A stretch of 32,000 nt of DNA. It comes from Puniceicoccales bacterium. GTDB taxonomy: Bacteria > Verrucomicrobiota > Verrucomicrobiia > Opitutales > UBA9783. Shown piece after piece: positions 1-16,839 of this stretch (within the stretch, counting starts at the first letter, position 1; every line of letters starts with the position of its first letter). A program made the position numbers and the translations under genes. Under the pieces are notes generated by a model. It was not told the origin of the DNA. It saw nothing but the letters and a program-made list of their open reading frames with translations, and searched no databases. The DNA is taken from assembly GCA_031258545.1 (NCBI GenBank), contig JAIRMU010000010.1:1-32000 (forward strand), in the 5' to 3' direction.

Positions 1-110
1 GGTCTTGAGGTCTTGAGGTCTTGAGGTCTTGAGGTCTTGAGGTCTTGAGGTCTTGAGGTCTTGAGGTCTTGAGGTCTTGAGGTCTTGAGGTCTTGAGGTC
101 TTGAGGTCTT
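1..110 (-). repeat. Perfect 8-bp microsatellite: (GGTCTTGA)n on + strand, (TCAAGACC)n on - strand; 13.75 units, cut by the left window edge
   Basis: Direct reading: the string returns to the same phase every 8 nt from 1 to 110 with no mismatch. It ends at ggtctt|cacag. It lies immediately downstream (on the - strand) of the promoter at 123-152. Confidence 0.97.
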
Positions 111-758: not shown

Positions 759-1860
759 ATTGGCCGCCAGAGATTATGAAATTTCTCACACGTTGCGTAG
801 GCTAAATAAACCGATCATTTTGGCAGTTAACAAAATAGATAACGAACGAGATGAGTCCAGTTGGGTTGAATTTTACCATCTGGGTTGGGAAATTGTCATT
901 CCCATTGCCGCCGAGCATGCGATTAATATTACCATTTTAAAAGAAGCCATCATGCATGCGTTACCTTCGGCCAAAGCTCTTGAGAGTACCGTTGATTTTA
1001 GTGCAAAATTTGCCGTTATAGGTCGACCTAACGTGGGAAAGTCTTCCTTGGTTAACGCTTTGCTAAAAGAAGATCGCATGCTTGTGAGCGATGTTGCGGG
1101 AACAACGCGTGACGCGGTTGAATGCCCATTTTCATGGCAATTTCAAACGGGCCAGAAGGAGAATTTTGTTTTGGTGGATACGGCAGGCGTTCGAAAAAAG
1201 ATAATCGATCCCGTAGAGTATTACGCTTACGTAAGAACCGAGAAAGCATTGCAAACGGTGGACTTGTCTCTCATTTTATTAGATCTATTGGAAGGCCCCA
1301 CCGTTATTGATAAAGACCTGGTTCGCCACGTATACGCATTGGGAAAAGCGTGCATATGGGTGGTGAATAAATGGGATATCGCAAGGCAGCAATTGGACGC
1401 AAGTGGTGAAAATGTAGAAAAATTCCGAAATAAATTTTTACAGCAAATAAACAGTTTGTATCCATTTTTCAATACCCCTGTTGCATTCGTTTCAGCCAAA
1501 TCGGGAGAAGGCATAGACGCTTTACTGAGGCAAGTTGCCGCATTACACAAACGCCTTCACGCAACCGTTTCCACCGGTTTGCTGAACCGTTATTTGCAGA
1601 AAATTATCACCCAAACACCGCCTCCTTCATATAACGGAAAACATTTTAAAATTTATTATGCCGTTCAGATGAAATCGGCCCCCTTCACCCTGCGGGTGTT
1701 TTGCAATAAACTACGCTGGCTGCCCAATCATTACCAACGATTTTTAGAAAATTCCCTGCGGCGGCAATACGCATTGGATGGCTGTCCCATTGTGTGGCAA
1801 TGGGTTGAGAAGTCTCCTCATGCCCTGTTAAACGCATCACCATTGAAGCAAGTGGTTTAG
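478..1860 (+). CDS. der: Ribosome-associated GTPase Der/EngA
   Basis: 460 aa with two tandem GTPase domains (G1 GCTNVGKST and GRPNVGKSS; G3 DSGG and DTAG; G4 NKID and NKWD) plus a C-terminal KH-like region. Confidence 0.95.
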   Translation: MHNALPKVLLFGCTNVGKSTLFNRLSQSRMAIVHDQPGVTRDFLSATVDEKFQLVDSGGIGSPNDLFANLVEDRVRGILEKAEVVIWVLDGKCGLAARDYEISHTLRRLNKPIILAVNKIDNERDESSWVEFYHLGWEIVIPIAAEHAINITILKEAIMHALPSAKALESTVDFSAKFAVIGRPNVGKSSLVNALLKEDRMLVSDVAGTTRDAVECPFSWQFQTGQKENFVLVDTAGVRKKIIDPVEYYAYVRTEKALQTVDLSLILLDLLEGPTVIDKDLVRHVYALGKACIWVVNKWDIARQQLDASGENVEKFRNKFLQQINSLYPFFNTPVAFVSAKSGEGIDALLRQVAALHKRLHATVSTGLLNRYLQKIITQTPPPSYNGKHFKIYYAVQMKSAPFTLRVFCNKLRWLPNHYQRFLENSLRRQYALDGCPIVWQWVEKSPHALLNASPLKQVV

Positions 1861-1868
1861 TTGTTCGC

Positions 1869-2822
1869 ATGCCTAAAGTACGTACCGTTTTTTTATCCGC
1901 TTCCGATATTGCGGTTCCATGCTTGGAACGGTTGTTGAAGATAAATGACTGCCAACTGGTTAGTATTGTGACGCAACCTGAACGTCCCAGAGGGCGTGGA
2001 CAAAAGCATAGCCCGAATCCAATTGCAACGTGGGCACAATCGCATCGCATTGCCTGCCTGCAAACGGAGCAAATGGATGATGGCATATTTGTTGAGTTGC
2101 GGCAAATGCAAATCGACATTGCACTTGTGATGGCGTTTGGCCACATCCTTAAACAACGTTTTTTGGATCTTCCCGCGTTGGGTATGTGGAACTTTCACAC
2201 TTCACTTTTACCCAAATACCGTGGGGCGTCCCCCATTCAAACATGCCTGTTAATGGGTGAACATGAAACGGGTGTTACGCTGATGCGTATGGTGGAAAAA
2301 CTGGATGCGGGTCCCTGGATTGCGCAAAAAATTGTGGGCATCGAGACCCAAGAGACGGCCCACACGCTCACGCAAAAATTAGCCCACGCGAGCGCAGATC
2401 TGTTGGTCGAATGTTGGAGTCGTCTTATCCAAAAAAATTACTCGGTCGTCGAGCAAATTGAATCGGCTGCCACCGTAACACGTAAATTGAACAAGGCGGA
2501 TGGGTTGCTTGATTTTAATGAAACCGCTTTGTCTTTAGAACGAAAGGTTAGAGCGTTAAATCCTTGGCCAGGCACCTTCTTCCAATGGAAAAGTGAATGC
2601 ATAAAAGTTCACACCGCCCACATAATCGACGAAGAAATTGCCCGTAAGCCCGGTACGGTATTATTTGATTTTTGTCAATGTCCGCTGGGCATAGCAACTT
2701 CGAAGGGCATTTTGGCCATAGATCAATTGCAGCGTCCTGGTGGGAAAATTCTACACGCAAAGGAATTCTTAAACGGAAATAAGTCTTTACTTCAAGTTAA
2801 TCATGATAACGCTCAGTTGTAA
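1869..2822 (+). CDS. fmt: Methionyl-tRNA formyltransferase
   Basis: 317 aa. Formyltransferase core HTSLLPKYRGASPIQ and a C-terminal Fmt domain. Starts 8 nt after der. Confidence 0.9.
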   Translation: MPKVRTVFLSASDIAVPCLERLLKINDCQLVSIVTQPERPRGRGQKHSPNPIATWAQSHRIACLQTEQMDDGIFVELRQMQIDIALVMAFGHILKQRFLDLPALGMWNFHTSLLPKYRGASPIQTCLLMGEHETGVTLMRMVEKLDAGPWIAQKIVGIETQETAHTLTQKLAHASADLLVECWSRLIQKNYSVVEQIESAATVTRKLNKADGLLDFNETALSLERKVRALNPWPGTFFQWKSECIKVHTAHIIDEEIARKPGTVLFDFCQCPLGIATSKGILAIDQLQRPGGKILHAKEFLNGNKSLLQVNHDNAQL

Positions 2823-2845
2823 AAAAGTCGTAAAACAGAGGTTGT

Positions 2846-4324
2846 TTGCGTGTAAGGATTTTGTACATTGGGAATGGCATACAAATCGTACTTCGGTTTT
2901 TTAGGTTGAAGTTTTCGGATCCACGCGTATATGCTTCACGTGTGAGAGAATTTCTGCAGCTTTTCCCAGAATTACGTACGTGGACGCAAACACTCGACCT
3001 AGAGCAGACGCGCAGATTGTGTCAGTCGTTTAGAAAGATTCCTTTTCGGGAATGGCGGGCATTAAAAACTGTGTCGCAAAAAGCTTTCAAAAAAAGGTCT
3101 TCATCCGTTAAACGGTGGACACAGCCCGCATGTTTTACGTTGGAAGACAGGCAAGTGCAATCGGCTTTGTGGCAGCAAGCTGAATCCAGAGGCATGCAGC
3201 ATTTACGTCAGGGGAAAGTGGCCGCCTTAACGGTTGCAGGAGGGTTGGGTACACGCTTAGATTTCCCAGGCCCCAAAGGTTTGGTTCCCGTAACACCTCT
3301 AAAACGTAAAACGTTATTTCAGGTGTTTGCCGAAAAATTAAAAGCCATTGAAAAGCTGCACGGCATACGTATGCACTGGTTTATCATGACAAGTGCAGAT
3401 ACGCACGAAGCAACGCAGGAAGCTTTTCAATCCAATCATTGGTATGATTCAAAATATGTTCATTTATTCCAACAGGGAGCATTACCTGCATTTACGATGG
3501 ACGGAACATGCTTACTGACCCATGAACCCAGCATCCATTATTATCCGGATGGCCATGGAGGTGTTTTTAAGGCTTTAGCATCGACCGGGTATCTGGATAA
3601 AATGTTGACATATGGCATAGAAACGCTGAGCTATTTTCAAGTGGACAATCCACTTGTTTGCATTGGGAATTGCAATTTCCTTGGATTGCATCTCAATGGC
3701 ATGTCCGATTTTTCCACAAAAGTTGTTGCCAAAACAAGTGCCGACGAAAAGGTGGGTGTTTTCGTCAACCAAGGTAATGTTTTACGATTGGTGGAATACA
3801 ATGAAATACCGGAGTATTTGTCGGTAAAAAAGACGAAAGAGGGTCAACTTTATTTTAAATGGGGTAATACGGCCATGCATCTCATTCAACGTAGTTTTTT
3901 AGAGGCAATGGCAAAGAAAAATCTGCCCATTCACGTAACGCATAAACCTATGCAACATTGGCATCCTTTACTGCAAAACAATTGTTCTGCCTCTTGTCAA
4001 AAATTAGAATATTTTATATTCGATGCGCTGCCTCTTGCAAAAAATCCACTCTTACTTGAAATAGATCGAAAAGAGGAATTTAGCCCTGTCAAAAACGCTC
4101 ATGGGCAAGATAGCTTGGACACTTGTATGAGGGATCAAATAAGTCGCTGGAATCGTTGGTTTTCAAATTGTGGATTAAACGTTGACCTTGGCAACAAAGC
4201 AAGCGATAATACCCATCGTCTCGAAATAAGTCCTTTGTTTGCGGATGATTACGTAAGCTTTAAAAATATGTGGCATGCATTGGTCATTAAACCTAATTAT
4301 TTTGAAAATCTTTATTTGGAGTAA
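2846..4324 (+). CDS. UDPGP-family (UAP1/USP-like) UTP:sugar-1-phosphate uridylyltransferase; true start uncertain
   Basis: Motifs GGLGTRLDFPGPKG and YFQVDNPLV are typical of the UDP-sugar / UDP-GlcNAc pyrophosphorylase family. The track start is a TTG and the first ~90 residues are not recognisable, so the real start may be further downstream. Confidence 0.75.
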   Translation: MRVRILYIGNGIQIVLRFFRLKFSDPRVYASRVREFLQLFPELRTWTQTLDLEQTRRLCQSFRKIPFREWRALKTVSQKAFKKRSSSVKRWTQPACFTLEDRQVQSALWQQAESRGMQHLRQGKVAALTVAGGLGTRLDFPGPKGLVPVTPLKRKTLFQVFAEKLKAIEKLHGIRMHWFIMTSADTHEATQEAFQSNHWYDSKYVHLFQQGALPAFTMDGTCLLTHEPSIHYYPDGHGGVFKALASTGYLDKMLTYGIETLSYFQVDNPLVCIGNCNFLGLHLNGMSDFSTKVVAKTSADEKVGVFVNQGNVLRLVEYNEIPEYLSVKKTKEGQLYFKWGNTAMHLIQRSFLEAMAKKNLPIHVTHKPMQHWHPLLQNNCSASCQKLEYFIFDALPLAKNPLLLEIDRKEEFSPVKNAHGQDSLDTCMRDQISRWNRWFSNCGLNVDLGNKASDNTHRLEISPLFADDYVSFKNMWHALVIKPNYFENLYLE

Positions 4325-4330
4325 GTTTAC

Positions 4331-6313
4331 ATGAATGCTATCTTTGATCAATTGCAGCAAGCGGTTCGAGCCGGGGAATTGCTCGAAAGTACATTGAATA
4401 ACATCGTTTATTACTTAAACGTGCAACAATTACCCGATTGGTTTACGTCAAGTCTTGAAGAATTGGTGGAACAAGGTCGGTGGGCTGAATTGAATGACCG
4501 ATTTTTTAAGTGCATAGAATTTGGTACCGCCGGCATGCGCGGACGTACCATAGGCAACCATGCAACGGCTGCTGAAAAAAAGGGGGATAATCATTACGTA
4601 CATGCCGCCATTGGAAGTAATTGCATGAACGATTTTAATGTTATTAAAGCAACCATAGGGCTTTTCAAATATTGCCGCATTTACCTTGAAGAAACTTTGG
4701 AATTCCCTCGTAGACCTAGCCTTGTGGTGGCTCACGACATGCGTTACTTTTCGCGACATTTTTGCGAATTGACGGCGTCCACGTGGAGTCGGTTGGGTGG
4801 AGACGTTTACGTATTTGATGGGCCTCGATCAACCCCGCAACTAAGTTTTTCAATTCGCTATTTAGGTGTTACGGCAGGCATTATGATCACGGCGAGCCAC
4901 AATCCTTTCTACGATAACGGTTATAAAGTTTATCTTCAGGATGGTGCTCAAGTTTGTGATGTGCATGCCAAAGGTATTACGCGCTGCATTGAGCAAGTAA
5001 GTTTACGGGACACTTTACCCTTTTTGATGAAGGACATAGAACCAGTCTTTTGCTTGTCTCCTTTAAGCGACGAAGCTTATCTGGAATGCGTCCAAGAGGT
5101 CCTGCTGGATGTGGATGTACTCAAAGTTTATAAACCCAAAGTTGTTTATACACCGCTGCACGGTACAGGTTCTGTCAGCATATTGCCGCTCCTGAAAAAC
5201 TTTGAATGGAATGTTCACTGTGTGGATGCACAATTGAAGATGGATCCAGCATTTCCCACCATTCGGTTTCCCAATCCCGAGCACAAAGAAGCTTTAAAAA
5301 TGGCCTTAGACTTAGCGCAGGAAGTGGACGCGGATGCAGTCATTGCGACAGATCCCGATGGCGACCGCATGGGTGTTGCTTTAAAAAATGACCAAAAAGA
5401 ATGGTGTGTTTTAAGCGGCAATACTTTGGCTGTTTTATTGGTCGAGTATCGAATATTTAAAATGATTGGTTTAGGGATCCTCCCCCGTAAGCAGGAAAAA
5501 CGTCGGAATGGGGCCCTCATTAAGTCGTTTGTAACCACACCAATGCTAAAGGCGATAGGCGATTATCACGGCCTCAAAACGGTTGAAACGCTAACCGGAT
5601 TTAAGTGGATCGGTGCGAAGTTAAACGATTACGAGATAGCATTGAAGCAGCGTGTTCGAAAGATGCAAGGACTGGGGATAGACTACGATAAAACATCTTT
5701 TAAAAAACGTAAGGATCTGCTGTTACAACATTCTACGTTTTATATCTTTGGAGGCGAAGAAAGTTACGGCTATTTGGCCAATGATCGCGTTAGAGATAAG
5801 GATGCCAATGCCGCCGCTTTGATGTTTTGCGAATTTTTAGCTTACCTAAAATCTAAGGAAATGAACTTTTCGGATTATTTGGACGAAATGTATTGCAAAT
5901 ATGGGTATTTCCAAGAAGATTTGCTGAGCTTTTCATTTGAAGGTGCTGCCGGATTTTCCACCATGCAAAAGTTATTAACGTCTTACCGACAGGATGTTCC
6001 AAAAAAAATAAATAATGTTCGTGTTTTGAGCATAGCTGATTTTTCTCGCGAAGGACACCATAAAGATTGCGAAGGTAAGGTAATTGCCGTTGCCAATTTT
6101 TTGATCATTAAACTTATCGATGGCTTTAGTGTGGCCATTCGCGGCAGTGGAACAGAACCCAAGGTAAAGATATATTTGCTGGGGCAATCGGAAGTTGAAC
6201 ATGAAGATTTACTGCCTCATATTAAGCAGGATGTTGCGCAACGTTTAGGACAATTGAAAGAATTTTTACGTGAAGATGTGGCTAAGCGTATTCAGGCAAA
6301 GCAAAACGCGTAG
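4331..6313 (+). CDS. Alpha-D-phosphohexomutase (phosphoglucomutase/phosphomannomutase, PGM2/PgcA-like long form)
   Basis: Active-site serine loop TASHNP, Mg-binding DPDGDR, sugar-binding GGEESYG. 660 aa. Starts 6 nt after the preceding gene. Confidence 0.88.
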   Translation: MNAIFDQLQQAVRAGELLESTLNNIVYYLNVQQLPDWFTSSLEELVEQGRWAELNDRFFKCIEFGTAGMRGRTIGNHATAAEKKGDNHYVHAAIGSNCMNDFNVIKATIGLFKYCRIYLEETLEFPRRPSLVVAHDMRYFSRHFCELTASTWSRLGGDVYVFDGPRSTPQLSFSIRYLGVTAGIMITASHNPFYDNGYKVYLQDGAQVCDVHAKGITRCIEQVSLRDTLPFLMKDIEPVFCLSPLSDEAYLECVQEVLLDVDVLKVYKPKVVYTPLHGTGSVSILPLLKNFEWNVHCVDAQLKMDPAFPTIRFPNPEHKEALKMALDLAQEVDADAVIATDPDGDRMGVALKNDQKEWCVLSGNTLAVLLVEYRIFKMIGLGILPRKQEKRRNGALIKSFVTTPMLKAIGDYHGLKTVETLTGFKWIGAKLNDYEIALKQRVRKMQGLGIDYDKTSFKKRKDLLLQHSTFYIFGGEESYGYLANDRVRDKDANAAALMFCEFLAYLKSKEMNFSDYLDEMYCKYGYFQEDLLSFSFEGAAGFSTMQKLLTSYRQDVPKKINNVRVLSIADFSREGHHKDCEGKVIAVANFLIIKLIDGFSVAIRGSGTEPKVKIYLLGQSEVEHEDLLPHIKQDVAQRLGQLKEFLREDVAKRIQAKQNA

Positions 6314-6616
6314 TATAATCTGGGCCGATAGAGGCTTTAGGAATGCCTTTGTGCAAGGTTGAGTTATTGGGATGAATTGACCCAATATGTCTTCGGTTAA
6401 ATAAAAATTCCCATAGGGGTAGTGTATCGGTTAATTCCTTTTGCACCCACCGTTAAGGTTTTTTCGAAATGGATTCATGTGTATTGTCTGTACGCAATGG
6501 AAAAAATATGTCGGACATTTGTGGTATTTTAAAACGCATGAGACGTCCTGTACAATCGTGAGCAGTTTAGTATTGACGTTTGGAATGTTATATAGCTTAG
6601 TTTGTTTACAGTACTG

Positions 6617-6692
6617 GCCGAGATAGCTCAGTAGGTAGAGCAACGCATTCGTAATGCGTGGGTCGTGAGTTCGAATCTCACTCTCGGCTCCA
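6617..6692 (+). tRNA. tRNA-Thr (anticodon CGU) with encoded CCA
   Basis: Hand-folded cloverleaf: acceptor GCCGAGA/TCTCGGC, D stem GCTC/GAGC, anticodon stem ACGCA/TGCGT with loop TTCGTAA, T stem GTGAG/CTCAC with loop TTCGAAT, discriminator T, CCA. Confidence 0.96.
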
Positions 6693-6716
6693 GTGGTTAT
6701 CACAAGTGGGGTTTTT

Positions 6717-6872
6717 ATGTCACAACATGCAAGTTTTCGTCAGGGACGTTCTGCTTTGACAAGCAATAAGACGGTGTTAAAACGTTTTGAAAGGGTTGAA
6801 TTACTCAAAAAACGTGGTCAATGGAAAGAAGGACAAAGCGTATTAGGTTTGCGCAAAACAAAACCAGAGTAA
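6717..6872 (+). CDS. Small basic protein, 51 aa (below the ORF-track cutoff)
   Basis: ATG...TAA gives MSQHASFRQGRSALTSNKTVLKRFERVELLKKRGQWKEGQSVLGLRKTKPE. From memory it resembles the ~50-aa 'small basic protein' family (core VL.R.ER.E.L...G.W....S..GL.K) of Planctomycetes/Verrucomicrobia-type genomes. It fills the tRNA-efp gap. Confidence 0.6.
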   Translation: MSQHASFRQGRSALTSNKTVLKRFERVELLKKRGQWKEGQSVLGLRKTKPE

Positions 6873-6896
6873 TGGCACTAACGTACTTTTTATCTT

Positions 6897-7454
6897 ATGG
6901 CATCTGCAACGGATATTCGTAAAGGACAGGTTCTACTGTATCAGAATGTGCCCCATTGGGTGGTAGATATGCAACATCGTACGCAGGGGCGTCAATCGGG
7001 GTTTGTGCAGGTTACTTTGCGCAACTTGCATACGGGTTCATCGACAAAAACTAAATTTGGATCCAACGATAATATTACCTTATGTTTTACGGAATCCAAA
7101 GACTTGGAATACGCCTATGCGGATGATGTTGGGTATCACTTTTTGAATCCCAATACCTTTGAAGATGAAATCATTCCAAGTTCTCTGTTGGAAGATCAAA
7201 AGTTGTACTTAATTTCAGGTATCGTTTATGCGGTGATGTTTGTGGAGGCAAAACCCGTTCAATTGCAATTGCCGACTGCACTTTCCATGAAGGTCATTGA
7301 AGCATCGGAAGGGTTACGCGGAGATACGGCGAGTAATGCCCAGAAACCTGTTGTTACCGAAAGTGGACTGACCGTGCAGGTCCCTTTATTTATCAAACGC
7401 GGAGAAGTCATTCGCGTCAGTACAAGTGATGGTTCCTATTTGGGGAGAGCCTAA
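6897..7454 (+). CDS. efp: Translation elongation factor P, with Arg at the loop-tip modification position
   Basis: 185 aa. Aligns without gaps to canonical EF-P (VVD.QH....G.....FV...LRNL.TG ... TSDGSY..RA). Residue 32 is R (cgt 6990-6992) where Lys-type EF-Ps have K. Confidence 0.95.
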   Translation: MASATDIRKGQVLLYQNVPHWVVDMQHRTQGRQSGFVQVTLRNLHTGSSTKTKFGSNDNITLCFTESKDLEYAYADDVGYHFLNPNTFEDEIIPSSLLEDQKLYLISGIVYAVMFVEAKPVQLQLPTALSMKVIEASEGLRGDTASNAQKPVVTESGLTVQVPLFIKRGEVIRVSTSDGSYLGRA

Positions 7455-7457
7455 TTT

Positions 7458-8396
7458 ATGGCCAAAAAACCTTCGGAGGATGCGGTAAATAAACCTAAGG
7501 TTATTTATACAATTACTCTGGAAGAAAGCCAGATCCAAGCTCTCGAAACCTGGTGTGACCATCGTGCATGGGAATTTTACCATGTGGATTACGCTCGTTT
7601 TGCCTTTCGGGGTGACGGCGTCAACGTGGTTGCCTATCAAAGTGGCAAGGTCGTAATTCAGGGAAAAAAGACGGAAAGTTTTGTGACTTATGTTTTGGAA
7701 TCTGAAATTACTCGGAAGCCGCAATGGGGTTTGGAAAGGGTCCATCATCCGGAATGGTTTGTACCACATGCGGGCATGGATGAAAGTGGTAAGGGTGATT
7801 TTTTTGGTCCCTTGGTTACGGCTTGTGTCATTGCCGATGGTCCCATGGTGGACGCTTGGATACAATCGGGACTCAGGGAAAGCAAAAGACTTGGCAATGA
7901 TTTAACCGTTTTTAAAATGGAACAGTTGGTGCGCCGGACGCAGGGCGTTGTGATTGAAATTGCTTTTGCCGGCATGGAAAAATATAACTCGTTATACGGG
8001 CAGTTTGGCAATTTAAACGAATTATTGGCTTGGTTGCACGCAAAATCATTGGACAATGCGTTGAAAAAACATTGGGTACCGGAAGGCTTGCTGGATCAGT
8101 TTGCCAAAGGTAAACTGGTTCAAAAATATTTGGAAAATACCCAATTCAATCTGAAACAACGCGTACGCGCCGAAGAAGATCCCGTCGTGGCCGCGGCCTC
8201 GGTTGTTGCGAGGGCAGAATACCTGAGACAATTAAAAAAATTAAGCGATGAAGCGGGGATGCCTTTACCAAAAGGCGCAGGTGCCCGTGTGCAAGAAATT
8301 GCACATACTTTGGTTAAAAATCTTGGACGGGAACGATTGGGTTGTTTTGCCAAACTGCACTTTAAGACGACCGACAAAATTGTAAACGACAGCTGA
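7458..8396 (+). CDS. rnhC: Ribonuclease HIII
   Basis: 312 aa. N-terminal RNase HIII-type extension, then an RNase HII/HIII catalytic core with GMDESGKGDFFGPLV. Starts 3 nt after efp. Confidence 0.85.
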   Translation: MAKKPSEDAVNKPKVIYTITLEESQIQALETWCDHRAWEFYHVDYARFAFRGDGVNVVAYQSGKVVIQGKKTESFVTYVLESEITRKPQWGLERVHHPEWFVPHAGMDESGKGDFFGPLVTACVIADGPMVDAWIQSGLRESKRLGNDLTVFKMEQLVRRTQGVVIEIAFAGMEKYNSLYGQFGNLNELLAWLHAKSLDNALKKHWVPEGLLDQFAKGKLVQKYLENTQFNLKQRVRAEEDPVVAAASVVARAEYLRQLKKLSDEAGMPLPKGAGARVQEIAHTLVKNLGRERLGCFAKLHFKTTDKIVNDS

Positions 8397-8547
8397 GTAG
8401 AACGCTATGTCTAGAAAAATGAAGGATTGCGCGAAGTAGTCGTTGCGACTTTGGGCAATAATTAAATCCTTATCTCAAGTAGCGTTGATTTTAGAAAGTA
8501 AAATAAATCTCCATAATTTTTTTGCCACGAGGTCAAATTGATCTCAT

Positions 8548-8874
8548 CTAGAAGATTGAGACATACGAATGTAAGCTAAATGTGGCTGTCGGGCCACATT
8601 TTCCATCCAAAACCCAAACGACAACCTCTGCTTTCTCCAAAATGCCTCTGATACGGTCTTCAACCAAATTTGCAAATAAGTTGTCGGGACTGCCTATGCC
8701 GCCACTGTCCACAAGTTGAAATTTTTTATCCACAGTCATCGACAAGAAATCACGCGTTACACCGGGTTGATCGTGCACAATCGCCATGCGACTTTGACTT
8801 AAACGATTGAACAAAGTACTTTTGCCAACGTTGGCGCATCCAAATAAAAGTACTTTGGGTAAAGCGTTGTGCAT
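8548..8874 (-). pseudogene. Truncated duplicate of the der 5' end (codons 1-93 plus 15 unrelated codons)
   Basis: MHNALPKVLLFGC(A/T)NVGKST...VLDGKCG matches der with 7 of 93 differences, then diverges and stops. It lacks G4, the second GTPase domain and the KH domain. It lies in the right arm of the inverted duplication. Confidence 0.88.
8578..8601. other. Perfect 9-bp stem, 6-nt loop palindrome at the inner breakpoint of the duplication
   Basis: AAATGTGGC tgtcgg GCCACATTT. The right half is the last 9 nt of the duplicated der sequence; the left half is its inverted copy. There is no T-run on either strand, so it is not called a terminator. Confidence 0.8.
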
Positions 8875-9540
8875 AATTGCTTTATTTCTGTTTAAAGTTT
8901 GTATTTTTGCAAGTTATTTGTGGGACCAAATGAGGGTGAAACTTGGGAACACGTTGGTCGTTTACCTAAATCCAGATTCTCGGTTTAACACCCAATATTT
9001 CCTGCTACACCGTGATAAAAGATTAACCCCGTATGTGCGGTTACGTACTTGTAAAATCCTTGGGAATTATGTTGTACAAAACAAATTACTGAATTACATT
9101 TGATGGCGAATGAACTTTTCAAAATCTGTGAGTATAACATTTCATGGATGATGATAGACTTATAATACCATAAGCCGGCAATGTGTCATAAAGTTCAACC
9201 TTCAACATGAGTCAGTCTACAATCTATAAGTTTTGAAAATCCTCCGAGAAATTATGTATGTACGCGTATATTCAAGAGGACTGCATCCGTTTTACTACCA
9301 CCGACTGGAGTTGATAAAACTGTTTTGAATATCTCTGGGAATGATGCAATACGACGAAAAACGAAATCACATCCGTCTTACCGCATATCAATCTTAACCC
9401 ATAAACCCAGTTTTACCGTAAGACAAACATCCCCTTGGCCATTGCATCGGATAATTGAATTTTCCTTCAAAACCCTCCGCAAATACCATGAAAAACCCTT
9501 GACAGAGGTAGGTAGGGAAGGATAGAATAATTTAACTGTG
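8594..9540. repeat. Right arm of the inverted duplication; carries roughly 300 bp extra relative to the left arm
   Basis: Reverse-complement match to 111-758. The distance from the der ATG to the module -35 box is 624 nt here and 325 nt on the left. The extra DNA lies roughly at 9128-9420. Confidence 0.88.
9499..9528 (+). promoter_or_regulatory. Sigma70-type promoter of pilin-like gene A (module copy 2)
   Basis: TTGACA (9499-9504), 18-nt spacer, TAGAAT (9523-9528), then AATTTAACTGTGAAGACCTCAA. Nearly identical to copy 1. Confidence 0.65.
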
Positions 9541-9614
9541 AAGACCTCAAAGCGTCTGAGCGCTTAGTTGCCAACCTCATTCCGGAGGTCGAAGACCTCG
9601 GTCAACGGTTGGGA
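9538..9614 (+). promoter_or_regulatory. Conserved 5' leader, copy 2: 9-codon GTG mini-ORF, 20-nt invariant box, and a segment complementary to the box that contains the TTG start
   Basis: GTG 9538 to TAG 9567 encodes MKTSKRLSA. The box TTGCCAACCTCATTCCGGAG (9568-9587) is identical in copy 3. CAACGGTTGGGA (9603-9614) contains GGTTGG, complementary to CCAACC in the box, and the TTG start at 9609. An inner hairpin GAGGTC-gaa-GACCTC sits at 9585-9599. Confidence 0.4.
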
Positions 9615-10457
9615 GCCGATCGAGAATCGGAACTAAGTCGAGAGTGGGAAGCCGTCTGTAAATTAAGACTAAGCCAGAAATCGAGACCGATCCAGAGATT
9701 GGCCCTAAATCAACTGTCTGGATCAAGTCGAGACCTGGAGCCAAAACAAAAGTTAAAGTCGGTTCGAGGGCCAGAGCTAAGCCAGGGATTAGGATCGGTC
9801 CGGAGATTTGACCCCAATCGAAGATCCGATCGAGGATTACCTCGAAAATTGGAAGCGAGTCGGGACCTATGGTCGGTTTATGAATCAGAGTCTCCATCCC
9901 CATCCGTAACCCGAAAAGGTTTTACGCTCATCGAAATCGTTGTCACCCTGTGCATCGTGGCCATCCTGACCGCCATTGCCATTCCTGGCTTTAGGAAAGC
10001 CACGGAAGATTTTCGATTGAATTCCACACTCGAAGACACGGTGGACATACTCAAAGCCTGCCGCAATTACTATCTCATCTTTAATGAGTTCCCTCTGGAT
10101 TCATGCGATAGTGTCATACCGAATCGCCTGAGGCTATTTGTACCCCATCGTCTTATTAACACCGCAACGGGCAAATGGAATGCCCTTCCACTAGGCAATA
10201 AAGCCTACAGTTATGACATCGACAATTGGATGGGTAATACCTCCAACAAACAACACAGTATAGGTATATCACTGTGCGGCATCAGACAAAATACTGCCGA
10301 TTGGAATAAGTGTTATAATAAGTTTAAGTCGCGTATAGGAGAGAGGTATATTACACCCTGGTCGGTTAGTTCTTATTACATGATATGCCTTTTACCCGAA
10401 TGTCCTGGATCGACGGATCATAATAGAAATACGACGTGGGAAAATCGATACTATTAG
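9609..10457 (+). CDS. Type IV pilin / pseudopilin-like protein A with a long N-terminal extension; start codon unresolved
   Basis: Prepilin motif RKG|FTLIEIVVTLCIVAILTAIAIPGF (G at 9918-9920, E at +5) followed by a ~178-aa Cys-containing domain ending PECPGST...WENRYY. The frame is open from 9531. The first canonical start is TTG 9609, giving a 104-codon leader. There is no in-frame ATG before the motif. Confidence 0.8.
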   Translation: MGADRESELSREWEAVCKLRLSQKSRPIQRLALNQLSGSSRDLEPKQKLKSVRGPELSQGLGSVRRFDPNRRSDRGLPRKLEASRDLWSVYESESPSPSVTRKGFTLIEIVVTLCIVAILTAIAIPGFRKATEDFRLNSTLEDTVDILKACRNYYLIFNEFPLDSCDSVIPNRLRLFVPHRLINTATGKWNALPLGNKAYSYDIDNWMGNTSNKQHSIGISLCGIRQNTADWNKCYNKFKSRIGERYITPWSVSSYYMICLLPECPGSTDHNRNTTWENRYY

Positions 10458-10792
10458 ACGAATTCCTTATTTATTTGGATTCAATACTTGGAGTTATGTG
10501 TGGGTAAAAGGTAAAACCATGACATCCTTTTAATTTGAGTAAACAATCGATGAATCCGCGTTAAAAAAACGAAGGCATCCATTATTTACAAGTCCAGCCC
10601 TTCAGGAAGTTAGTGGAACGCATCTGTTCTGACGACAATTGCGATGTAAAAACCATGACGCCATTAGACTAACCATTTTCCCCAAAAACAATCTTGTGAA
10701 CCAAAGCAATAGGTGATTTAGGAGAAATTTGCCATATGGCGTCTTGGGGAGTTAATCCCGGCAATGAATTCTAGAAAAAAGATCCAATCTCC

Positions 10793-10820
10793 TTGACAAA
10801 GAACAAAAAACGACTATAAT
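10793..10820 (+). promoter_or_regulatory. Sigma70-type promoter of pilin-like gene B (module copy 3)
   Basis: TTGACA (10793-10798), 16-nt spacer, TATAAT (10815-10820), then AACTTAATTGTGAAGAC. Confidence 0.65.
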
Positions 10821-10829
10821 AACTTAATT

Positions 10830-10906
10830 GTGAAGACACCGAGATCTCTGACCGTTTAATTGCCAACCTCATTCCGGAGCTAAAGGACCCCAGGCAACGG
10901 TTGGGA
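10830..10906 (+). promoter_or_regulatory. Conserved 5' leader, copy 3: same architecture and spacing as 9538-9614
   Basis: GTG 10830 to TAA 10859 encodes MKTPRSLTV. The box TTGCCAACCTCATTCCGGAG is at 10860-10879 and CAACGGTTGGGA at 10895-10906, with the TTG start at 10901. Box-to-TTG distance is 41 nt in both copies. Confidence 0.4.
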
Positions 10907-11692
10907 TCAGGTCAAAGGGTAAGATCAGATCGAGGATTGGAGTTAGGTCGAGATCTGAAACCGATCCAAAGGTCGGAACCCAGCCAAAGATCTGATCAAA
11001 GATTACCTCAAAGATTTTGGCAAAACCGGAAGTTGAGACCAACCTGGGGATTGGGATGGTTGAAGTTCTTCGGAGGTTCGGGATTATTTCACGGGGTCGC
11101 CTACACCCTACCGTTTTCGAGTAAATACCTAGAAAGGCAATCTAAGCATCCATCCGCAAGCCGTAACGGATTTACGCTCATCGAAGTTGTTGTCACGCTG
11201 TGCATCGTGGCCATCCTTACCGCCATCGCCATTCCGGGGTTTAAAAAGGCGACCGAAGATTTTCGGCTTAATGCAACGCTAGAAGATACTGTGGATATTA
11301 TGAAGGCTTGCCGCGCTTACTACCTCATCTTTAATGAATGGCCTGCTGACGCAGGTGATAATATAGAAACCAAATTGTGCCCTTTTGTACCTAATCGTTT
11401 GATGAATCCCAGCAAGCGGTGGAATCGTAGGCCATTGAATAGTACAGCCTACAACTATGATTGGGAAAATTTTGTAAGCTATGCAAACACGTTACCTCAT
11501 AGTGTTGGGATATCTCTCATAGGTATTAAATTTGGTACTGCTGTTTGGGATAAATGTTACCTTAAGTTCCAACCTGTGATTGGAGGCAAATACATTATGA
11601 GTCGTAATGATCGCATGTGTTGCCTTATGCCCGAATGCCCTGGTTCGACAAATCCTAACAGTAACACGCTTTGGGAGAATCGATACTATTAA
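10901..11692 (+). CDS. Type IV pilin / pseudopilin-like protein B, paralog of A; start codon unresolved
   Basis: RNG|FTLIEVVVTLCIVAILTAIAIPGF (G at 11168-11170). The first ~55 mature residues are nearly identical to A, the middle is diverged, and the tail PECPGST...WENRYY is shared. The frame is open from 10823. TTG 10901 gives a 90-codon leader with no in-frame ATG. Confidence 0.8.
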   Translation: MGSGQRVRSDRGLELGRDLKPIQRSEPSQRSDQRLPQRFWQNRKLRPTWGLGWLKFFGGSGLFHGVAYTLPFSSKYLERQSKHPSASRNGFTLIEVVVTLCIVAILTAIAIPGFKKATEDFRLNATLEDTVDIMKACRAYYLIFNEWPADAGDNIETKLCPFVPNRLMNPSKRWNRRPLNSTAYNYDWENFVSYANTLPHSVGISLIGIKFGTAVWDKCYLKFQPVIGGKYIMSRNDRMCCLMPECPGSTNPNSNTLWENRYY

Positions 11693-11720
11693 AAAACCGA
11701 TTTCTCGTTTGAATGGGGTT

Positions 11721-11798
11721 AACTGGACTCCTGGTATGGCAAAACTCTTTTGCGTACTTTCCAAATGTCCGGGGAAAGTTGAAAATAAATACTATTAA
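11721..11798 (+). pseudogene. Orphan 3'-terminal fragment of a further pilin-like paralog
   Basis: Translates to NWTPGMAKLFCVLSKCPGKVENKYY*. This parallels ITPW...MICLLPECPGST...WENRYY* and ...MCCLMPECPGST...WENRYY*. DNA tail GAAAATAAATACTATTAA versus GAGAATCGATACTATTAA. It begins 29 nt after the gene B stop. Confidence 0.45.
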
Positions 11799-12144
11799 GA
11801 ACTTCTCCTAATAACCGTTAAAAGTTGGCCGGAATTTTAATAATCCGAAAAACATCACCCCAATAAACATCAAATAAGTACACTCATTATTTAAAATATT
11901 TTGAGGATATTACGATGGTTCATTCTCTCATTTTAGTAAGACATGGCAGTACCCTATAAAGATTAGTGACCGTAATTGAGTTTAAAAAATACGGCCAAAT
12001 TTTACAATTTGCAGAGTTCATTGCAAGCGGCTACGGGTAAGCTTGTAGAGTCCTGGGACAGGCCAATGCAAAAAGTGGCTTGAGGCCTGACCACTTATAT
12101 GTCTAAAAAAGTTGCCACCTTAAATTTAGAAGTATAAATGTAAG

Positions 12145-14832
12145 ATGCATATGAAGTCCAGTGAAATTAGGCAAAGTTTTCTCAATTTTTTTGAAAATAA
12201 GGGACACCGCATTGTCGATTCAAGTTCCTTGCTGCCGGAAACACCTAATTTATTATTTACCAACGCCGGAATGAATCCATTGGTTCCTTATTTTTTAGGT
12301 GAGCGATGTCCGCAATACAAGCGCGTTGCCGATACACAAAAATGCATTCGAGCGGGTGGCAAGCATAATGATTTGGAGGAAGTTGGATTTGATACTTACC
12401 ATCACACGTTTTTTGAAATGCTCGGCAATTGGTCTTTGGGAGACTATTTTAAAGAAGAGGCCATTTTATGGGCCTGGGAGCTTTTGACCCAAGTTTGGCA
12501 TTTCCCCAAAGAACGTCTATACGCAACCGTTTATCGACCTGCAGTGGGCGAACCCGCAAGTTTTGATGAAGAAGCCTACGTGTTGTGGGAAAAGATTTTT
12601 TTAGCGGAAGGTATGGACCCTGGTGTCCACATCTTAACGGGTAGCAAAAAAGATAATTTTTGGATGATGGGTGATACGGGACCGTGCGGTCCGTGTTCGG
12701 AAATTCATATGGATCTTACACCCCAAGGGGATACGCAAGGTCGTTGGGTCAATCAAGGAGATGCACGCTGCATGGAGATCTGGAATCTTGTTTTTATGCA
12801 GTACAATGCGCTGCCCAACGGTACATTCGAGTTGCTCAAAAGTAGGTTTGTGGATACCGGCATGGGATTTGAGCGCGTCGCCGGAATTTTTTCAAGCACG
12901 CAAAATTTAAAAAACTTTTCCCAAACACCCTCCAATTACAACAGCGATCTGTTTACTCCCCTACTGCGTCAATTGGAACAATGGTCCGGGTACAAATACG
13001 GTGGCCGCATTGCCGCAAATTCTCAAACCATTGTCGATGCGGATACCTTAAGAGATTGTTCCTTTCGTATTATTGCCGATCACGTCAGAACGTTGACGTT
13101 TGCGATTGCGGATGGCATTTTACCAGGGAATGAAGGACGTCACTACGTTTTAAGACGTATCATTCGAAGGGCTATCCTTTTTGGACAAAAATTAAATTTG
13201 CCCAATGGATTTCTTGCAGATCTTTCCCGCATCGTCGTGCAACACATGCATACCTTTTTTAGAGAACTCATGCAACAGTCGGAGATCGTTAAAACCGTTC
13301 TTAATAATGAAGAGCAGTCGTTTAAAGTAACGCTGCAAAAGGGCCTTAATCTGTTTGAAAAGTGGTCTTCCGATAACGCATACCTAAGTGGGGACCAGGC
13401 ATTTCTGCTCTACGACACCTACGGATTTCCGCTCGATCTAACGCAATTAATGGCCAGAGAGAAAGGAATCACCGTAGACACAGCGCAATTTAACGTACGC
13501 ATGCAGGAACAAAAAGGACGTTCCAAAGCGGCGCTTAGGAAAACAACGATTGCCCTGCAGGAAAACGATTCACCTAAAACGCATTTCGTCGGATACGACA
13601 TAAGCAATTGCACCGCATACGAAAGCGTGGTCAACGATTGCGTACCAGAAGATGCAAACGTAAGTTATGTCATTACGGCATCCACCCCTTTTTACGCCGA
13701 AAAAGGAGGGCAAGTGGGCGATGGTGGCCAAATTATCTTCCAGGATGGCACCGTAGGTGAAGTTGTGAACACACGTTATCAAAATCAAATCATTTTACAC
13801 CAAGTCCTCTTACCCCATTCGACGATCATTAAATACAAACATACACCCGTTACTTTATCCGTCGACGTCGAACGACGTAAACACATCTCCCATCATCATA
13901 CGGCAACCCACATACTGCATTGGGCATTGCGAAAAATATTGGGGGAACACGTTAAACAAGCCGGATCTTGGGTGCAGGCAGATCAACTTAGATTTGACTT
14001 TTCTCACTTTGAAAAGCTCAGCGAAACAACGATTGCCGATGTGGAAAGACTCTGTTGCGAAAAAATCTTGGAAAATCTTCCCATCAGCACCCTGGAAGTT
14101 CCATTTGATCAAAAACCTAAGGACTGTTTGGCATTTTTTGGCGACAAATATGGAGATACGGTACGCGTTGTTCAAATCTTAAACTGTTCCAAAGAACTAT
14201 GCGGAGGGACCCATGCAACGCGTACAGGCGATTTAGGTTTGTTGAAAATTAAACAAGAAAGCGCTGTAGCAGCGGGCGTTCGACGGATCGAAGCCACCGT
14301 GGGTGTACATGCAATCCAGTACATCAATACCTATATTACCTGCGTGCAACAATTGGAAAAAATGATGGATTGCCCATTGCAGAAGCTCCAAGAACGATTT
14401 CAGTTACTGCAACAACAAAAAGCCGAAGTAGAAAAGCGGTATCAGCAAGCATTACAAAAGACTTCCAGTCAACTTGTTGCCGAAACAGTCACCCACAATA
14501 CGCTCTGCTGCGTTCGACTCGCACTGCAGTCCGTAGACACGCATACGCTCAAAAATCTCAGCAAACAGTACTTTAACGAACAAAAACCGGACATCTTATG
14601 CTCATTTGGAGAGCAAACGCAAAAAGGATTTGTATTTGTTTTTTGTTCAGAAAAAGCTATTCAAAAAGGATTTACGGCGTCAACACTGATTCAACGGCTG
14701 TTGCAACCCCTAGGTGCCAATGGTGGCGGTAAAGCTGATTTTGCAAGTGGTGGCGTGAAACGCAGCATCGACTTGGAACGGTACTTACAAATTTTCTCGC
14801 TGGAAAAATTTTTCAACGGGAGTAAAATTTAG
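12145..14832 (+). CDS. alaS: Alanine--tRNA ligase
   Basis: 895 aa. N-terminus (MH)MKSSEIRQSFLNFFENKGH, class II core HHTFFEMLGNWS, editing-domain metal ligands HHHTATH and CGGTH, C-terminal DHHA1-like region. The start is probably the ATG at 12151. Confidence 0.97.
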   Translation: MHMKSSEIRQSFLNFFENKGHRIVDSSSLLPETPNLLFTNAGMNPLVPYFLGERCPQYKRVADTQKCIRAGGKHNDLEEVGFDTYHHTFFEMLGNWSLGDYFKEEAILWAWELLTQVWHFPKERLYATVYRPAVGEPASFDEEAYVLWEKIFLAEGMDPGVHILTGSKKDNFWMMGDTGPCGPCSEIHMDLTPQGDTQGRWVNQGDARCMEIWNLVFMQYNALPNGTFELLKSRFVDTGMGFERVAGIFSSTQNLKNFSQTPSNYNSDLFTPLLRQLEQWSGYKYGGRIAANSQTIVDADTLRDCSFRIIADHVRTLTFAIADGILPGNEGRHYVLRRIIRRAILFGQKLNLPNGFLADLSRIVVQHMHTFFRELMQQSEIVKTVLNNEEQSFKVTLQKGLNLFEKWSSDNAYLSGDQAFLLYDTYGFPLDLTQLMAREKGITVDTAQFNVRMQEQKGRSKAALRKTTIALQENDSPKTHFVGYDISNCTAYESVVNDCVPEDANVSYVITASTPFYAEKGGQVGDGGQIIFQDGTVGEVVNTRYQNQIILHQVLLPHSTIIKYKHTPVTLSVDVERRKHISHHHTATHILHWALRKILGEHVKQAGSWVQADQLRFDFSHFEKLSETTIADVERLCCEKILENLPISTLEVPFDQKPKDCLAFFGDKYGDTVRVVQILNCSKELCGGTHATRTGDLGLLKIKQESAVAAGVRRIEATVGVHAIQYINTYITCVQQLEKMMDCPLQKLQERFQLLQQQKAEVEKRYQQALQKTSSQLVAETVTHNTLCCVRLALQSVDTHTLKNLSKQYFNEQKPDILCSFGEQTQKGFVFVFCSEKAIQKGFTASTLIQRLLQPLGANGGGKADFASGGVKRSIDLERYLQIFSLEKFFNGSKI

Positions 14833-14996
14833 TTCAATGTAGATACTTAAAAGATACCACTAGGCTTGATTGACCGGCAAAAGTGTGGCTTTTAGGTTAT
14901 TTATTGACAATAAAAGGAAGGGGGTACACGCACGCATCCATCGTTAAAATCAAATGACATTCGCATAAAAACGAGATTTTGCATTTCAAACGTTTT

Positions 14997-16193
14997 TCAA
15001 GAAAACCAAGAAGACAAACGTTTCCACAAAGGCACATGCGATGATTTCTTCGAGGAACCAATTTGCTGCTGCAATGCGTAATGCAACAAGCCAAAGCAGG
15101 TTGCGTAGTTGGGAGATTGCAATTTTTCTTCGGTTACGGCCAAAGGGCCACGTACGTAGCAATCGCACTGAAATACTTGGGTCGCCGTTTTTTCGATATT
15201 TTTCAAAAGTGCTCCTCCACCCGTTAGGACGCAACCTGCCAAAAGCTCCTCTTCGCGATGCGCTGACTTTAAACTTTTTTGAATGTAATCGAAGAGTTCT
15301 TGCGCTCTTGCCTGAAGGACAACGCGTACATTTTTAGTTTTCACCTTTTTATCACCAATTGCTTGATTGCCGACCATCCAAAAATCTTCTTCCTGATTAT
15401 CCATTTCAATTTGCGGGATACCTTGTTTTATTTTAAGGTGTTCTCCGTCATCCAAATGCATGCGTAACCCCGAACATAGATCGTAGGTAAAGCTTTTACC
15501 ACCCACGGGGATCGTCCCTAATGCGAAGGGACATTGATGTTTAAACGCAATAAATTCTGTCATTTCGGCCCCTATGTCAATGACACATACGCCATTTTCC
15601 CTTTCAATGGCCGTCGTCGTTGCCAAGGCGGAAGCTAATCCTGAAAAAACGAGCTCTTTTACGTGGAACCCAAACTGATTGGACATATAAATATGATCTC
15701 GAATGGCCTGCGTGTCCCCCAAAAGTCCGCAATAGTGGACGCTCAATTGATTTCCCGAATGGCCGCACGGGTTATCCATAACGCTATTGTCGACGGTATA
15801 ATATTGCTTAAAATGATGGAGAAACAATTGATGTTCGGGTAGTTGTTTCTCCATGGCCAACCGGTTAACGGCGATGACATCCTGTTCTTCAATGACATGA
15901 TTAAATCCCGTAAGTGGTAAATTGGCCGCATAGTGGATGTTACGTATGTGACTTCCCGTTTGGGCTAAACAAATGGCCACGGGTAGTGTTGCATGTTTTT
16001 TATTCAATGGACTCAAGCCATTTTTGAGCGCACCCGTTAAAGCCTTTGAATCTTCAATGGTCCCTTTGCGTACACCTTGGCTTGGAAAATCAACGTAATC
16101 CACCAGATGGATTGTATTGTCAATTCTGGCCAGCAAAAATGTGATATTTTCCGACCCAATATCGAGTGCTCCCAAGTAATTTGCCATCTTCAC
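14997..16193 (-). CDS. ftsA: Cell division protein FtsA
   Basis: 398 aa actin-like ATPase. Phosphate-1 motif ALDIGSENI, segment GGKSFTYDLCSGLRMHLDDGEHLKIKQG, C-terminal amphipathic tail LWKRLSSWFS like the FtsA membrane-targeting helix. Confidence 0.82.
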   Translation of the reverse strand: MKMANYLGALDIGSENITFLLARIDNTIHLVDYVDFPSQGVRKGTIEDSKALTGALKNGLSPLNKKHATLPVAICLAQTGSHIRNIHYAANLPLTGFNHVIEEQDVIAVNRLAMEKQLPEHQLFLHHFKQYYTVDNSVMDNPCGHSGNQLSVHYCGLLGDTQAIRDHIYMSNQFGFHVKELVFSGLASALATTTAIERENGVCVIDIGAEMTEFIAFKHQCPFALGTIPVGGKSFTYDLCSGLRMHLDDGEHLKIKQGIPQIEMDNQEEDFWMVGNQAIGDKKVKTKNVRVVLQARAQELFDYIQKSLKSAHREEELLAGCVLTGGGALLKNIEKTATQVFQCDCYVRGPLAVTEEKLQSPNYATCFGLLHYALQQQIGSSKKSSHVPLWKRLSSWFS

Positions 16194-16239
16194 ATCTCTT
16201 ATACGACGCTTTTAGATAATGCTTTGTTTGGATACATAA

Positions 16240-16839
16240 TCAAGGATTACCACGTTGGGAGAAAATTTTCTTCAGGATGCTTTCAACCGAGTCTTCCATA
16301 CTCAATTGCTGCGCTGCACCTTCAAACAATTTTTCCGCCTGTTTCCTCGCATAACCTAAAGCCATCAACGTCGCAATTACATCGTTGTGAATGCGAGGCA
16401 ATAAAGCGGTCGTCGCATTACTTTTTTCCACAGTTGATTGCTTTTTTAGAAAATCTTTCAAATCCAAAATAAGCCTTTGGGCCGTCTTTTTACCAACGCC
16501 GGGGCATTGGGACAAAAGGGTAAAATTTTCAGAAAGAATCATTTGACACAGATCATCCATGGGGAAATAAGCTAAAATGGACATGGCTAATTTAGGCCCA
16601 ATGCCGTTTACTTTACCAACAAGCAATCTAAAAAAATTCCTTTGGGAGGGATCCAAGAAGCCGTACAATTGCTGACTATCCTCTCGGTAAACAGCCGCCG
16701 TGTACAATTTGTAGGGTTCGCCCAAACGAAATGCATTCGATGCGTGATTGACCATCAATTCGTACCCTATGCCGTGCACGTCTAAAACCAAAAAACTTTC
16801 CCCCAATTCAACCAAAATACCTTCCACAAATGCAATCAT
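16240..16839 (-). CDS. ruvA: Holliday junction branch-migration complex subunit RuvA
   Basis: 199 aa. N-terminus MIAFVEGILVE...VLDVHGIGYEL and HhH motifs (VNGIGPKLA, CPGVGKKTAQRL). Confidence 0.9.
   Translation of the reverse strand: MIAFVEGILVELGESFLVLDVHGIGYELMVNHASNAFRLGEPYKLYTAAVYREDSQQLYGFLDPSQRNFFRLLVGKVNGIGPKLAMSILAYFPMDDLCQMILSENFTLLSQCPGVGKKTAQRLILDLKDFLKKQSTVEKSNATTALLPRIHNDVIATLMALGYARKQAEKLFEGAAQQLSMEDSVESILKKIFSQRGNP

Follow-up and report, generated by a model that had tools for sequence, protein, structure and literature searches.

Tandem type IV pilin-like genes with repeat-built leaders and a candidate slippage switch in an uncultured member of the Puniceicoccales

Features of the pilin locus

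The window analysed here is a stretch of 32,000 nucleotides (nt) from a Puniceicoccales metagenome-assembled genome (MAG), positions 1 to 32,000 of contig JAIRMU010000010.1. It carries two type IV pilin-like genes, A and B, and the promoter end of a third cassette, C. The features of the three cassettes are given below (ORF: open reading frame). Related loci and proteins are referred to by L and P numbers, respectively.

1-110, minus strand: array of cassette C, perfect octanucleotide (GACCTCAA)x13.8, running off the left edge; a putative pilin gene C would lie beyond the window
111-113, minus strand: GTG of cassette C, proposed near-leaderless start, reading V-K-T-S-R-P-Q into the array
152-123, minus strand: promoter C, TTGACA-N18-TATAAT, 12/12 matches, pointing leftward out of the window
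9499-9528, plus strand: promoter A, TTGACA-N18-TAGAAT, 11/12 matches
9523-9621, plus strand: conserved 5' block of A and B, 77% identity over 99 nt, with invariant TTGCCAACCTCATTCCGGAG and CAACGGTTGGGA
9538-9567, plus strand: upstream ORF A, GTG, 8 codons and TAG, in the +1 frame relative to the pilin; a single repeat unit remains
9609-10457, plus strand: ORF A, type IV pilin-like, head to tail with ORF B
9609-9896, plus strand: leader A, ~16 degenerate 18-nt units, open in the pilin frame only
9918-10457, plus strand: mature pilin A, from the Gly(-1) codon through the stop, with F+1 at 9921 and E+5
10793-10820, plus strand: promoter B, TTGACA-N16-TATAAT, 12/12 matches
10830-10859, plus strand: upstream ORF B, GTG, 8 codons and TAA, in the +1 frame
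10901-11692, plus strand: ORF B, type IV pilin-like
10901-11167, plus strand: leader B, ~9 degenerate 18-nt units, then a leader-end module (..GVAYTLPFSSKYLERQSKHPSASRN) common to relatives
11168-11692, plus strand: mature pilin B, from the Gly(-1) codon through the stop
11712-11798, plus strand: orphan 3' end (..GMAKLFCVLSKCPGKVENKYY and stop), apparent remnant of an ancestral P0051-type pilin upstream of alaS

Pilin proteins and their family

Proteins A and B begin like type IV pilins, with G(-1), F(+1) and E(+5) followed by a hydrophobic helix of ~20 residues. The prepilin cleavage motif (cleavage site marked by a slash) is RKG/FTLIEIVVTLCIVAILTAIAIPGF in A (..RKG/FTLIEIVV..) and RNG/FTLIEVVV.. 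in B. Both proteins pass the cut-offs of Pfam N_methyl PF07963 (A 22.9 and B 25.3 bits; cut-off 21.2) and TIGR02532 (28.0 and 28.1; cut-off 16.3), which bears out the description of two tandem pilin-like genes in an earlier note on this DNA. The NCBIfam models GspH (25.8 and 22.2; cut-off 80) and GspG (24.3 and 24.6; cut-off 88.85) match the N-terminal helix only, and this helix is the sole part of A and B recognised in profile searches. Because the scores lie far under these cut-offs, A and B do not warrant the 'GspH family' label that several relatives bear at NCBI. They fit no curated pilin or pseudopilin family, as the earlier note had suspected.

An AlphaFold2 model was built from 45 family members, with a predicted local distance difference test (pLDDT) value of 87.9. 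It contains a 52-residue N-terminal helix (residues 7-58), four strands, a helix at residues 130-143 and a beta-sheet head. The best matches in the PDB, obtained with Foldseek, are the type IV pilins 9iuf and 6t8s (CofA and Clostridioides difficile PilA1), with a probability of 0.99-1.0 and a template modelling (TM) score of 0.46-0.49; GspG structures of type II secretion systems (T2SS) match the model much more poorly. The model agrees with the pilin fold that had been expected, and A and B can be assigned with confidence to type IV pilin-like proteins with a predicted pilin fold. Cleavage by a prepilin peptidase and a function in a fibre are predicted from sequence.

ORF A is identical to NCBI protein MDR0647173 from a Puniceicoccales MAG. 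A full-length search gave 63 relatives; those with an organism name all come from Puniceicoccales MAGs. With just the head domain (123 residues) as query, only 7 representatives were retrieved among 1.84 billion clustered proteins, and true relatives were present in just two of the species-representative genomes scanned. No literature on pilins of the order Puniceicoccales was found. The family is undescribed, extremely narrow and lineage-specific. Averaged by alignment column over the 45 members, conservation amounts to 0.72-0.91 in mature residues 1-60, 0.41-0.68 in residues 61-160 and 0.71-0.99 in residues 161-182; the pattern of conserved ends around a variable middle, which had been proposed from the window, thus holds for the family. 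The mature bodies of A and B are both intact, with all conserved residues present.

Some further properties of the proteins were recorded. For the conserved tail PECPGST..N.NT.WENRYY-COOH (A residues 163-182, ~10395-10454) disorder is predicted (pLDDT 50-66). An N-x-T motif recurs in this tail, whose last two residues are aromatic; the tail could be a modification or recognition signal. Cysteines 51, 135, 160 and 165 of the soluble part are 67-78% conserved, and Cys15 in the N-terminal helix 98%. Protein P0069 (1716 amino acids) shows six weak matches (E = 5.6e-4) to a part of the pilin head domain (query residues 32-78), which may represent a repeated head-related module or chance.

Promoters and start region

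Sigma-70-like matches were ranked over positions 1-12200 of the window. The three cassette promoters are the top three of the 24 sites scored, and TTAAYTGTGAAGAC occurs exactly three times, downstream of each of them. The idea of a promoter-leader-pilin cassette family with a common start region is thereby upheld, including a third promoter copy that fires out of the window (152-123, 12/12). The promoter block of cassette A recurs in other MAGs (L002b, L164), and promoter B is collinear with the promoter of the syntenic gene in L163. A GTG lies 9 nt past the -10 box in cassettes A, B and C of the window and in L002b and L164. This common GTG, located in ACTGTGAAGAC, opens merely a 9-codon upstream ORF in A and B.

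The pilin frame of A and B is open from the TAA within the -10 box to the cleavage site (129 and 115 codons), and no in-frame ATG or GTG is found in it for either gene. The TTG at 9609 and at 10901 is codon 1 of the first 18-nt unit, and the closest in-frame TTG before G(-1) stands at a distance of 23 codons in A and 36 codons in B. The 25 nt upstream of 24 window ORFs were inspected by eye: they are AT-rich, a Shine-Dalgarno sequence is mostly not obvious, and the start is ATG in 19 of the 24. The TTG contexts of A and B, GC-rich upstream, are unlike those of the other window genes. The organism seems to use Shine-Dalgarno-independent initiation, and the scarcity of Shine-Dalgarno sequences in the window would fit initiation at the 5' end of the messenger RNA (mRNA).

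A and B might simply be additional pilins or pseudopilins of an ordinary kind (for instance those of the nearby T2SS), expressed constitutively from the TTG codons 9609 and 10901, with the repeats as debris; this is in essence the view of the earlier note. Their near-consensus promoters and intact bodies would suit such genes. A, B and L002a all retain the TTG within CAACGGTTGGGA; for P0048 and P0055, the starts assigned by gene callers fall on the corresponding position (LG..); and a complete T2SS operon is located ~8 kb from the pilin genes. However, this TTG belongs to the 18-nt unit and its upstream context is GC-rich, in contrast to the real starts of the window. The T2SS operon, as had been noted before, is separate and has its own GspG (30439-30903, score 94.6; NCBIfam cut-off 88.85), and also GspK and three more pseudopilin-like genes, one of which is GspH-like but under the cut-off, whereas A and B score far under the GspG and GspH cut-offs. 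Against debris stand five paralogous or orthologous sites, each with a perfect array of 12-18 units (see below). This explanation is considered unlikely. The earlier note had also called A and B strongly promoted; this holds for the promoters but does not imply expression, as a credible start is missing and the only 5'-proximal one, the GTG, reads in another frame that closes after 9 codons.

Long leaders

The leaders of A and B comprise ~100 codons each and are built of a degenerate 18-nt unit, TTGGAACCnnnnCrArGr, which encodes the hexapeptide L-E/G-P/S-x-Q/R-R/G (autocorrelation z = 5-9 at lag 18). The 8-nt unit from which they had previously been thought to be built was an error. A common layout had also been claimed; it is confirmed for the first ~100 nt and the last ~20 codons, which can be aligned, but not for the remainder. 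A short basic leader of ~6-30 residues behind an identifiable start codon is present in neither A nor B.

Between start region and cleavage site the pilin frame is free of stops at every locus, against 0-14 stops in the other frames. For the leaders of A and B the two other frames have 6-9 stops each. In mononucleotide shuffles, a stop-free frame arises with a probability of 0.002 for A, 0.0005 for B and <0.0005 for L002a.

Apparent leaders in the family range from 24 to >200 codons (up to ~220 codons in P0055) and are repetitive. In a short-leader class the leader has 13 residues, L/M-K-Y-S-K-V-G-A-L-S-R-x-G, and looks normal, beginning with TTG or ATG; in the distant paralog L006 a short leader with an ATG follows an ordinary promoter. 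The codon homologous to the short-leader start is TCR (Ser) in L162, L002a, L002b, L163 and window A (B is not readable there); therefore the proximal start has been lost in these long-leader genes. Leaders of two or three modules occur in P0055, P0013, P0051, P0053, P0054, P0056, P0058 and P0059 and at L002 340-420. Here a leader end ..KHPSVGRNGF runs in frame into another start-region copy (HRDTKTSDRLIA..), with as many as 218 codons still to follow until the real cleavage site. Every internal ..RNGF itself looks like a site of cleavage. The modular leaders look like tandem duplications of the entire 5' module. At L163 (4552-5003) the 18-nt-repeat leader forms a separate ORF of 149 codons, the ATG of which overlaps the -10 box and the TGA of which overlaps the ATG of the pilin ORF (GTGTGATGCG). 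Compared with P0013, whose corresponding segment is in frame, the offset is one base, which could reflect either a frameshift mutation or stop-start coupling.

The leader could alternatively act as RNA, either as a structured 5' untranslated region or as a sponge or target of a GGA-binding regulator like CsrA, with the open frame as a by-product. A GGA-type motif (TTGGAA, TTAGGA or CGAGGA) is indeed present in each 18-nt unit, and repeated GGA sites recall CsrB-type RNAs. The folding energy of the leaders is, however, no better than that of shuffles (z = -1.7 and -0.4), no Rfam match was found in them, and one frame that stays free of stops across >400 codons of diverged repeats would be unexpected without translation. 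An RNA element is very unlikely.

Repeat arrays in cassette C and related loci

The arrays of the related loci are as follows.

L162: unit GACCTCAA, 11.8 copies
L003: unit GACCCAA, 17.9 copies
L005: unit GACTCAA, 15.1 copies
L165: unit GATACCAA, 14.8 copies
L164: unit GACCCAA, 2.7 copies

Five loci (window C, L162, L003, L005 and L165) have perfect arrays at the equivalent position, either directly following the start region or lying at the contig edge. The units are 7 or 8 nt long; four distinct ones were found, none a multiple of three, with the core CAAGA in common. Other simple-sequence repeats are absent from the ~100 kb examined. Four of the five long arrays are at a contig end or start no more than 7 nt from one. 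A long perfect array whose unit is not a multiple of three is one mark of simple-sequence-repeat contingency loci. The leftmost array of the window, whose role the earlier note had not recognised, would be the likely functional core of the system, a slippage switch, and related loci carry their 7- or 8-nt arrays at this place.

P0057 begins V-KTSRPQ(DLKTSRPQ)x4, that is, a GTG and five units, and continues through a 27-codon leader in frame into G/FTLIE. The GACCTCAA unit reads in frame with the pilin in P0057 and in P0004/L162. In L162 no ATG, GTG or TTG is found from the array to the cleavage site. In L002b the same promoter is accompanied by one unit and an upstream ORF of 9 codons; an in-frame start is lacking and the body is frameshifted, which makes L002b a pseudogene that may have decayed following loss of the array. 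Copy numbers of GACCTCAA are 5 in P0057 and at least 11.8 and 13.8 elsewhere, and those of GACCCAA are 2.7 in L164 and at least 17.9 in L003; the loci compared need not be orthologous, and the assemblies do not resolve long arrays.

At hmw1A and hmw2A of Haemophilus influenzae, upstream repeats of 7, 8 or 9 nt, the unit of which varies by strain and locus at one upstream site, are untranslated and expression is graded (PMC2651432, PMC3309571). The arrays described here might similarly be part of a transcribed, untranslated 5' region that tunes the level of expression, with translation from the proximal TTG or ATG. The short-leader class retains such a codon 13-14 codons before G/F, and in L164 the GTG is out of frame and the gene apparently intact, both as this explanation would have it. 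The long-leader genes speak against it: their proximal start is gone, and in L162 no in-frame start follows the array. The pilin frame is open over leaders of 110-180 codons while the other frames contain 4-14 stops, P0057 is in frame from the GTG, and none of the four distinct units is a multiple of three. For the family as a whole an untranslated tuning array is rather unlikely; for the short-leader class it is possible.

Proposed slippage switch in the discarded leader

We lean, with modest confidence, towards a multigene family of lineage-specific pilin-like contingency cassettes with a frameshift on/off switch in the discarded leader. Transcription would begin at a strong sigma-70-type promoter and translation at the GTG 9 nt past the -10 box, on an mRNA nearly without a 5' leader. 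A perfect array of 7- or 8-nt units with the core CAAGA would set the frame in which a long hydrophilic leader, open in the pilin frame, is read. Prepilin peptidase would cleave at G/FTLIE, the leader would be discarded and the mature pilin released. We infer the GTG start codon and the switching from this arrangement. As units of 7 or 8 nt are not divisible by three, the addition or removal of units by slippage would shift the GTG into or out of the pilin frame and turn the gene on or off, and because the repeat peptide lies within the removed leader, the repeat number should leave the mature protein unaltered. The leader would stay open because it is translated. The mechanism is apparently a variant of the simple-sequence-repeat contingency locus; unusual are the location of the repeats in a prepilin leader, the apparent 5'-terminal GTG start, the hexapeptide leaders and the paralog-specific units.

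Cassette C would be a switch-bearing copy, and the proposed switch fits C, L162 and P0057 best. A and B would be derivatives lacking the array, in which the GTG is one base out of frame and its ORF ends after 9 codons. They may be translated weakly, either from one of the in-frame TTGs that the Leu codons of the hexapeptide repeats provide or after the upstream ORF, or may be silent, intact reserve copies. The maintained open leaders would speak against long-term silence of A and B, and the missing good start against strong expression.

Several observations weigh against a slippage switch. Since A and B have no array, switching does not apply to them as they stand. The contig-end arrays are 94-125 nt long, close to the k of the assembler (contig names start with k119_), so that true copy numbers are not readable and the in-frame GTG of L003 is untrustworthy. 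Trustworthy complete states are restricted to P0057 (ON) and L164 (OFF, 2.7 units). The post-array leaders of 35 codons are not individually significant for openness, and the conserved proximal TTG or ATG of the short-leader class is a possible start independent of the array. On leaderless mRNAs, GUG initiates translation less well than AUG. Prepilin leaders of ~100 residues are, to our knowledge, unprecedented.

Orphan fragment and exchange between loci

At the syntenic position L163 has an intact pilin gene, and positions 11712-11895 of the window match its 3' end and the flank downstream of it at 80% identity, so that the orphan 3' remnant reported earlier is real. L163 belongs to another MAG and shows 86.6% identity to positions 11712-16827 of the window, across alaS, ftsA and ruvA. 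It is syntenic on both sides of gene B; promoter and leader are collinear with those of gene B, and the pilin body is different. The window retains the last ~87 nt of the ancestral gene. The orphan fragment is, by this alignment, the scar of one pilin body replacing another. Whole bodies have thus been replaced at syntenic slots between species, the 3' scar included.

L162 and L165 are orthologous slots with flanks 85% identical, and differ in pilin subfamily and repeat unit. The head of B is 81% identical to that of P0035, whose leader belongs to the other class. Together with the body swap at L163 these cases indicate that heads, leaders and arrays have been exchanged between slots. The exchange probably proceeds via the conserved ends: the conserved first ~60 mature codons and the tail would serve as recombination handles.

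A tentative extension, which we hold to be possible but short of probable, is surface variation in two layers, with a slippage switch in the prepilin leader of each slot and reshuffling of heads, leaders and arrays between slots, A and B being reserve genes.

Comparison with known systems

In Neisseria, opa has CTCTT pentamers in the signal-peptide coding region and pilC has a poly-G tract in the signal-peptide region. The proposed system would share with these a surface-protein family, a non-triplet repeat in a leader that is removed, an unchanged mature protein and independence of the paralogs. It differs in its units of 7 or 8 nt, which vary between paralogs, in a class III prepilin leader in place of a Sec signal peptide, and in the apparent GTG start at the 5' end of the mRNA. 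Switching is here proposed from sequence, for an uncultured Verrucomicrobium that is no pathogen.

Like hmw1A and hmw2A, the cassettes have long perfect arrays between promoter and coding part, with units that vary in sequence and length. Unlike hmw, an open frame leads from the GTG across the array and on into the gene, and for some genes an alternative start codon is absent.

The conserved 5' and 3' segments around variable heads and the footprints of body replacement resemble pilE/pilS of Neisseria. In contrast to promoterless, 5'-truncated pilS copies, the copies A, B, L002b, L163 and L164 are complete with their own promoter and leader. No single expression locus is evident, and the arrangement of one expressed locus with silent donors, as in pilE/pilS, was not found.

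With the type IVb pilins CofA and TcpA and with C. difficile PilA1 the proteins share the long N-terminal helix, the beta-sheet head, a leader longer than in type IVa pilins, G(-1) and E(+5). The similarity is otherwise limited, with a sequence identity of 12-14% at the TM scores given above. The head family consists of a few Puniceicoccales clusters, and the conserved C-terminal tail has no counterpart in CofA, TcpA or PilA1.

Neighbouring genes and inverted repeat

To the left of the pilin genes are der, fmt, genes for UDP-sugar pyrophosphorylase and phosphoglucomutase, a tRNA gene, efp and the RNase HIII gene rnhC; to the right are alaS, ftsA, ruvA, dapB, dapA and ksgA, with the T2SS operon past the ksgA side. 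Three ORFs of the T2SS operon (22946-23500, 25816-26364 and 26361-27521, minus strand) match no Pfam or NCBIfam model and could, by position, be analogues of GspC, GspL or GspM. No prepilin peptidase gene was recognised among the window ORFs scanned. Cassettes C and A are located at the outer ends of an inverted repeat that brackets 7.8 kb of housekeeping genes.

223-769: left arm of the inverted repeat, 547 nt, 95% complementary to the right arm, with intergenic sequence and the first ~97 codons of der/engA
478-1860: der/engA, 5' end inside the left arm
8583-9129: right arm of the inverted repeat, carrying truncated der'
8548-8874, minus strand: truncated der', divergent from cassette A as der is from cassette C

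Further matching segments lie outside the arms at 101-189 and 9462-9550, the flanking promoters being just 83% alike, and the right copy contains ~330 additional nt at 9130-9461. The 7.8-kb block from der to rnhC could be invertible by homologous recombination with der kept intact. Synteny with L163 ends upstream of the A-B intergenic region; this and the placement of the inverted repeat indicate that the cassettes mark a rearrangement breakpoint.

L001 (Logan contig SRR14710907_850559) is an independent assembly of window positions ~703-6663. It begins within the inverted-repeat arm in der and stops in the tRNA gene; the repeats seem to break this assembly, too. The cumulative GC skew has its maximum at ~12-13 kb (window 12000-15000), and gene orientation converges at 14832/14997, with alaS on the plus strand and ftsA on the minus strand. 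The peak may merely track the gene strand or reflect a switch resembling a replication terminus.

Biological implications

Contingency loci have been worked out nearly exclusively in host-adapted pathogens such as Neisseria, Haemophilus, Campylobacter and Helicobacter. Should the two-layer reading be true, it would extend the biology of contingency loci to a non-pathogenic, uncultured member of the phylum Verrucomicrobiota, and the leaders would be the longest and the only repeat-built prepilin leaders known. The switch would act on the pilin subunit itself and be placed in a leader that is thrown away. It is predicted that membrane insertion and prepilin peptidase tolerate hexapeptide-repeat leaders of 100-200 residues. 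In practice, gene callers disagree on the starts of these pilin genes, and the arrays break assemblies. Plausible selective drivers are pilus-specific phages or a host interface. If the same logic applies here, this would suggest that stochastic switching of surface filaments is a general answer to fluctuating selection, for instance by phages, grazers or a host surface.

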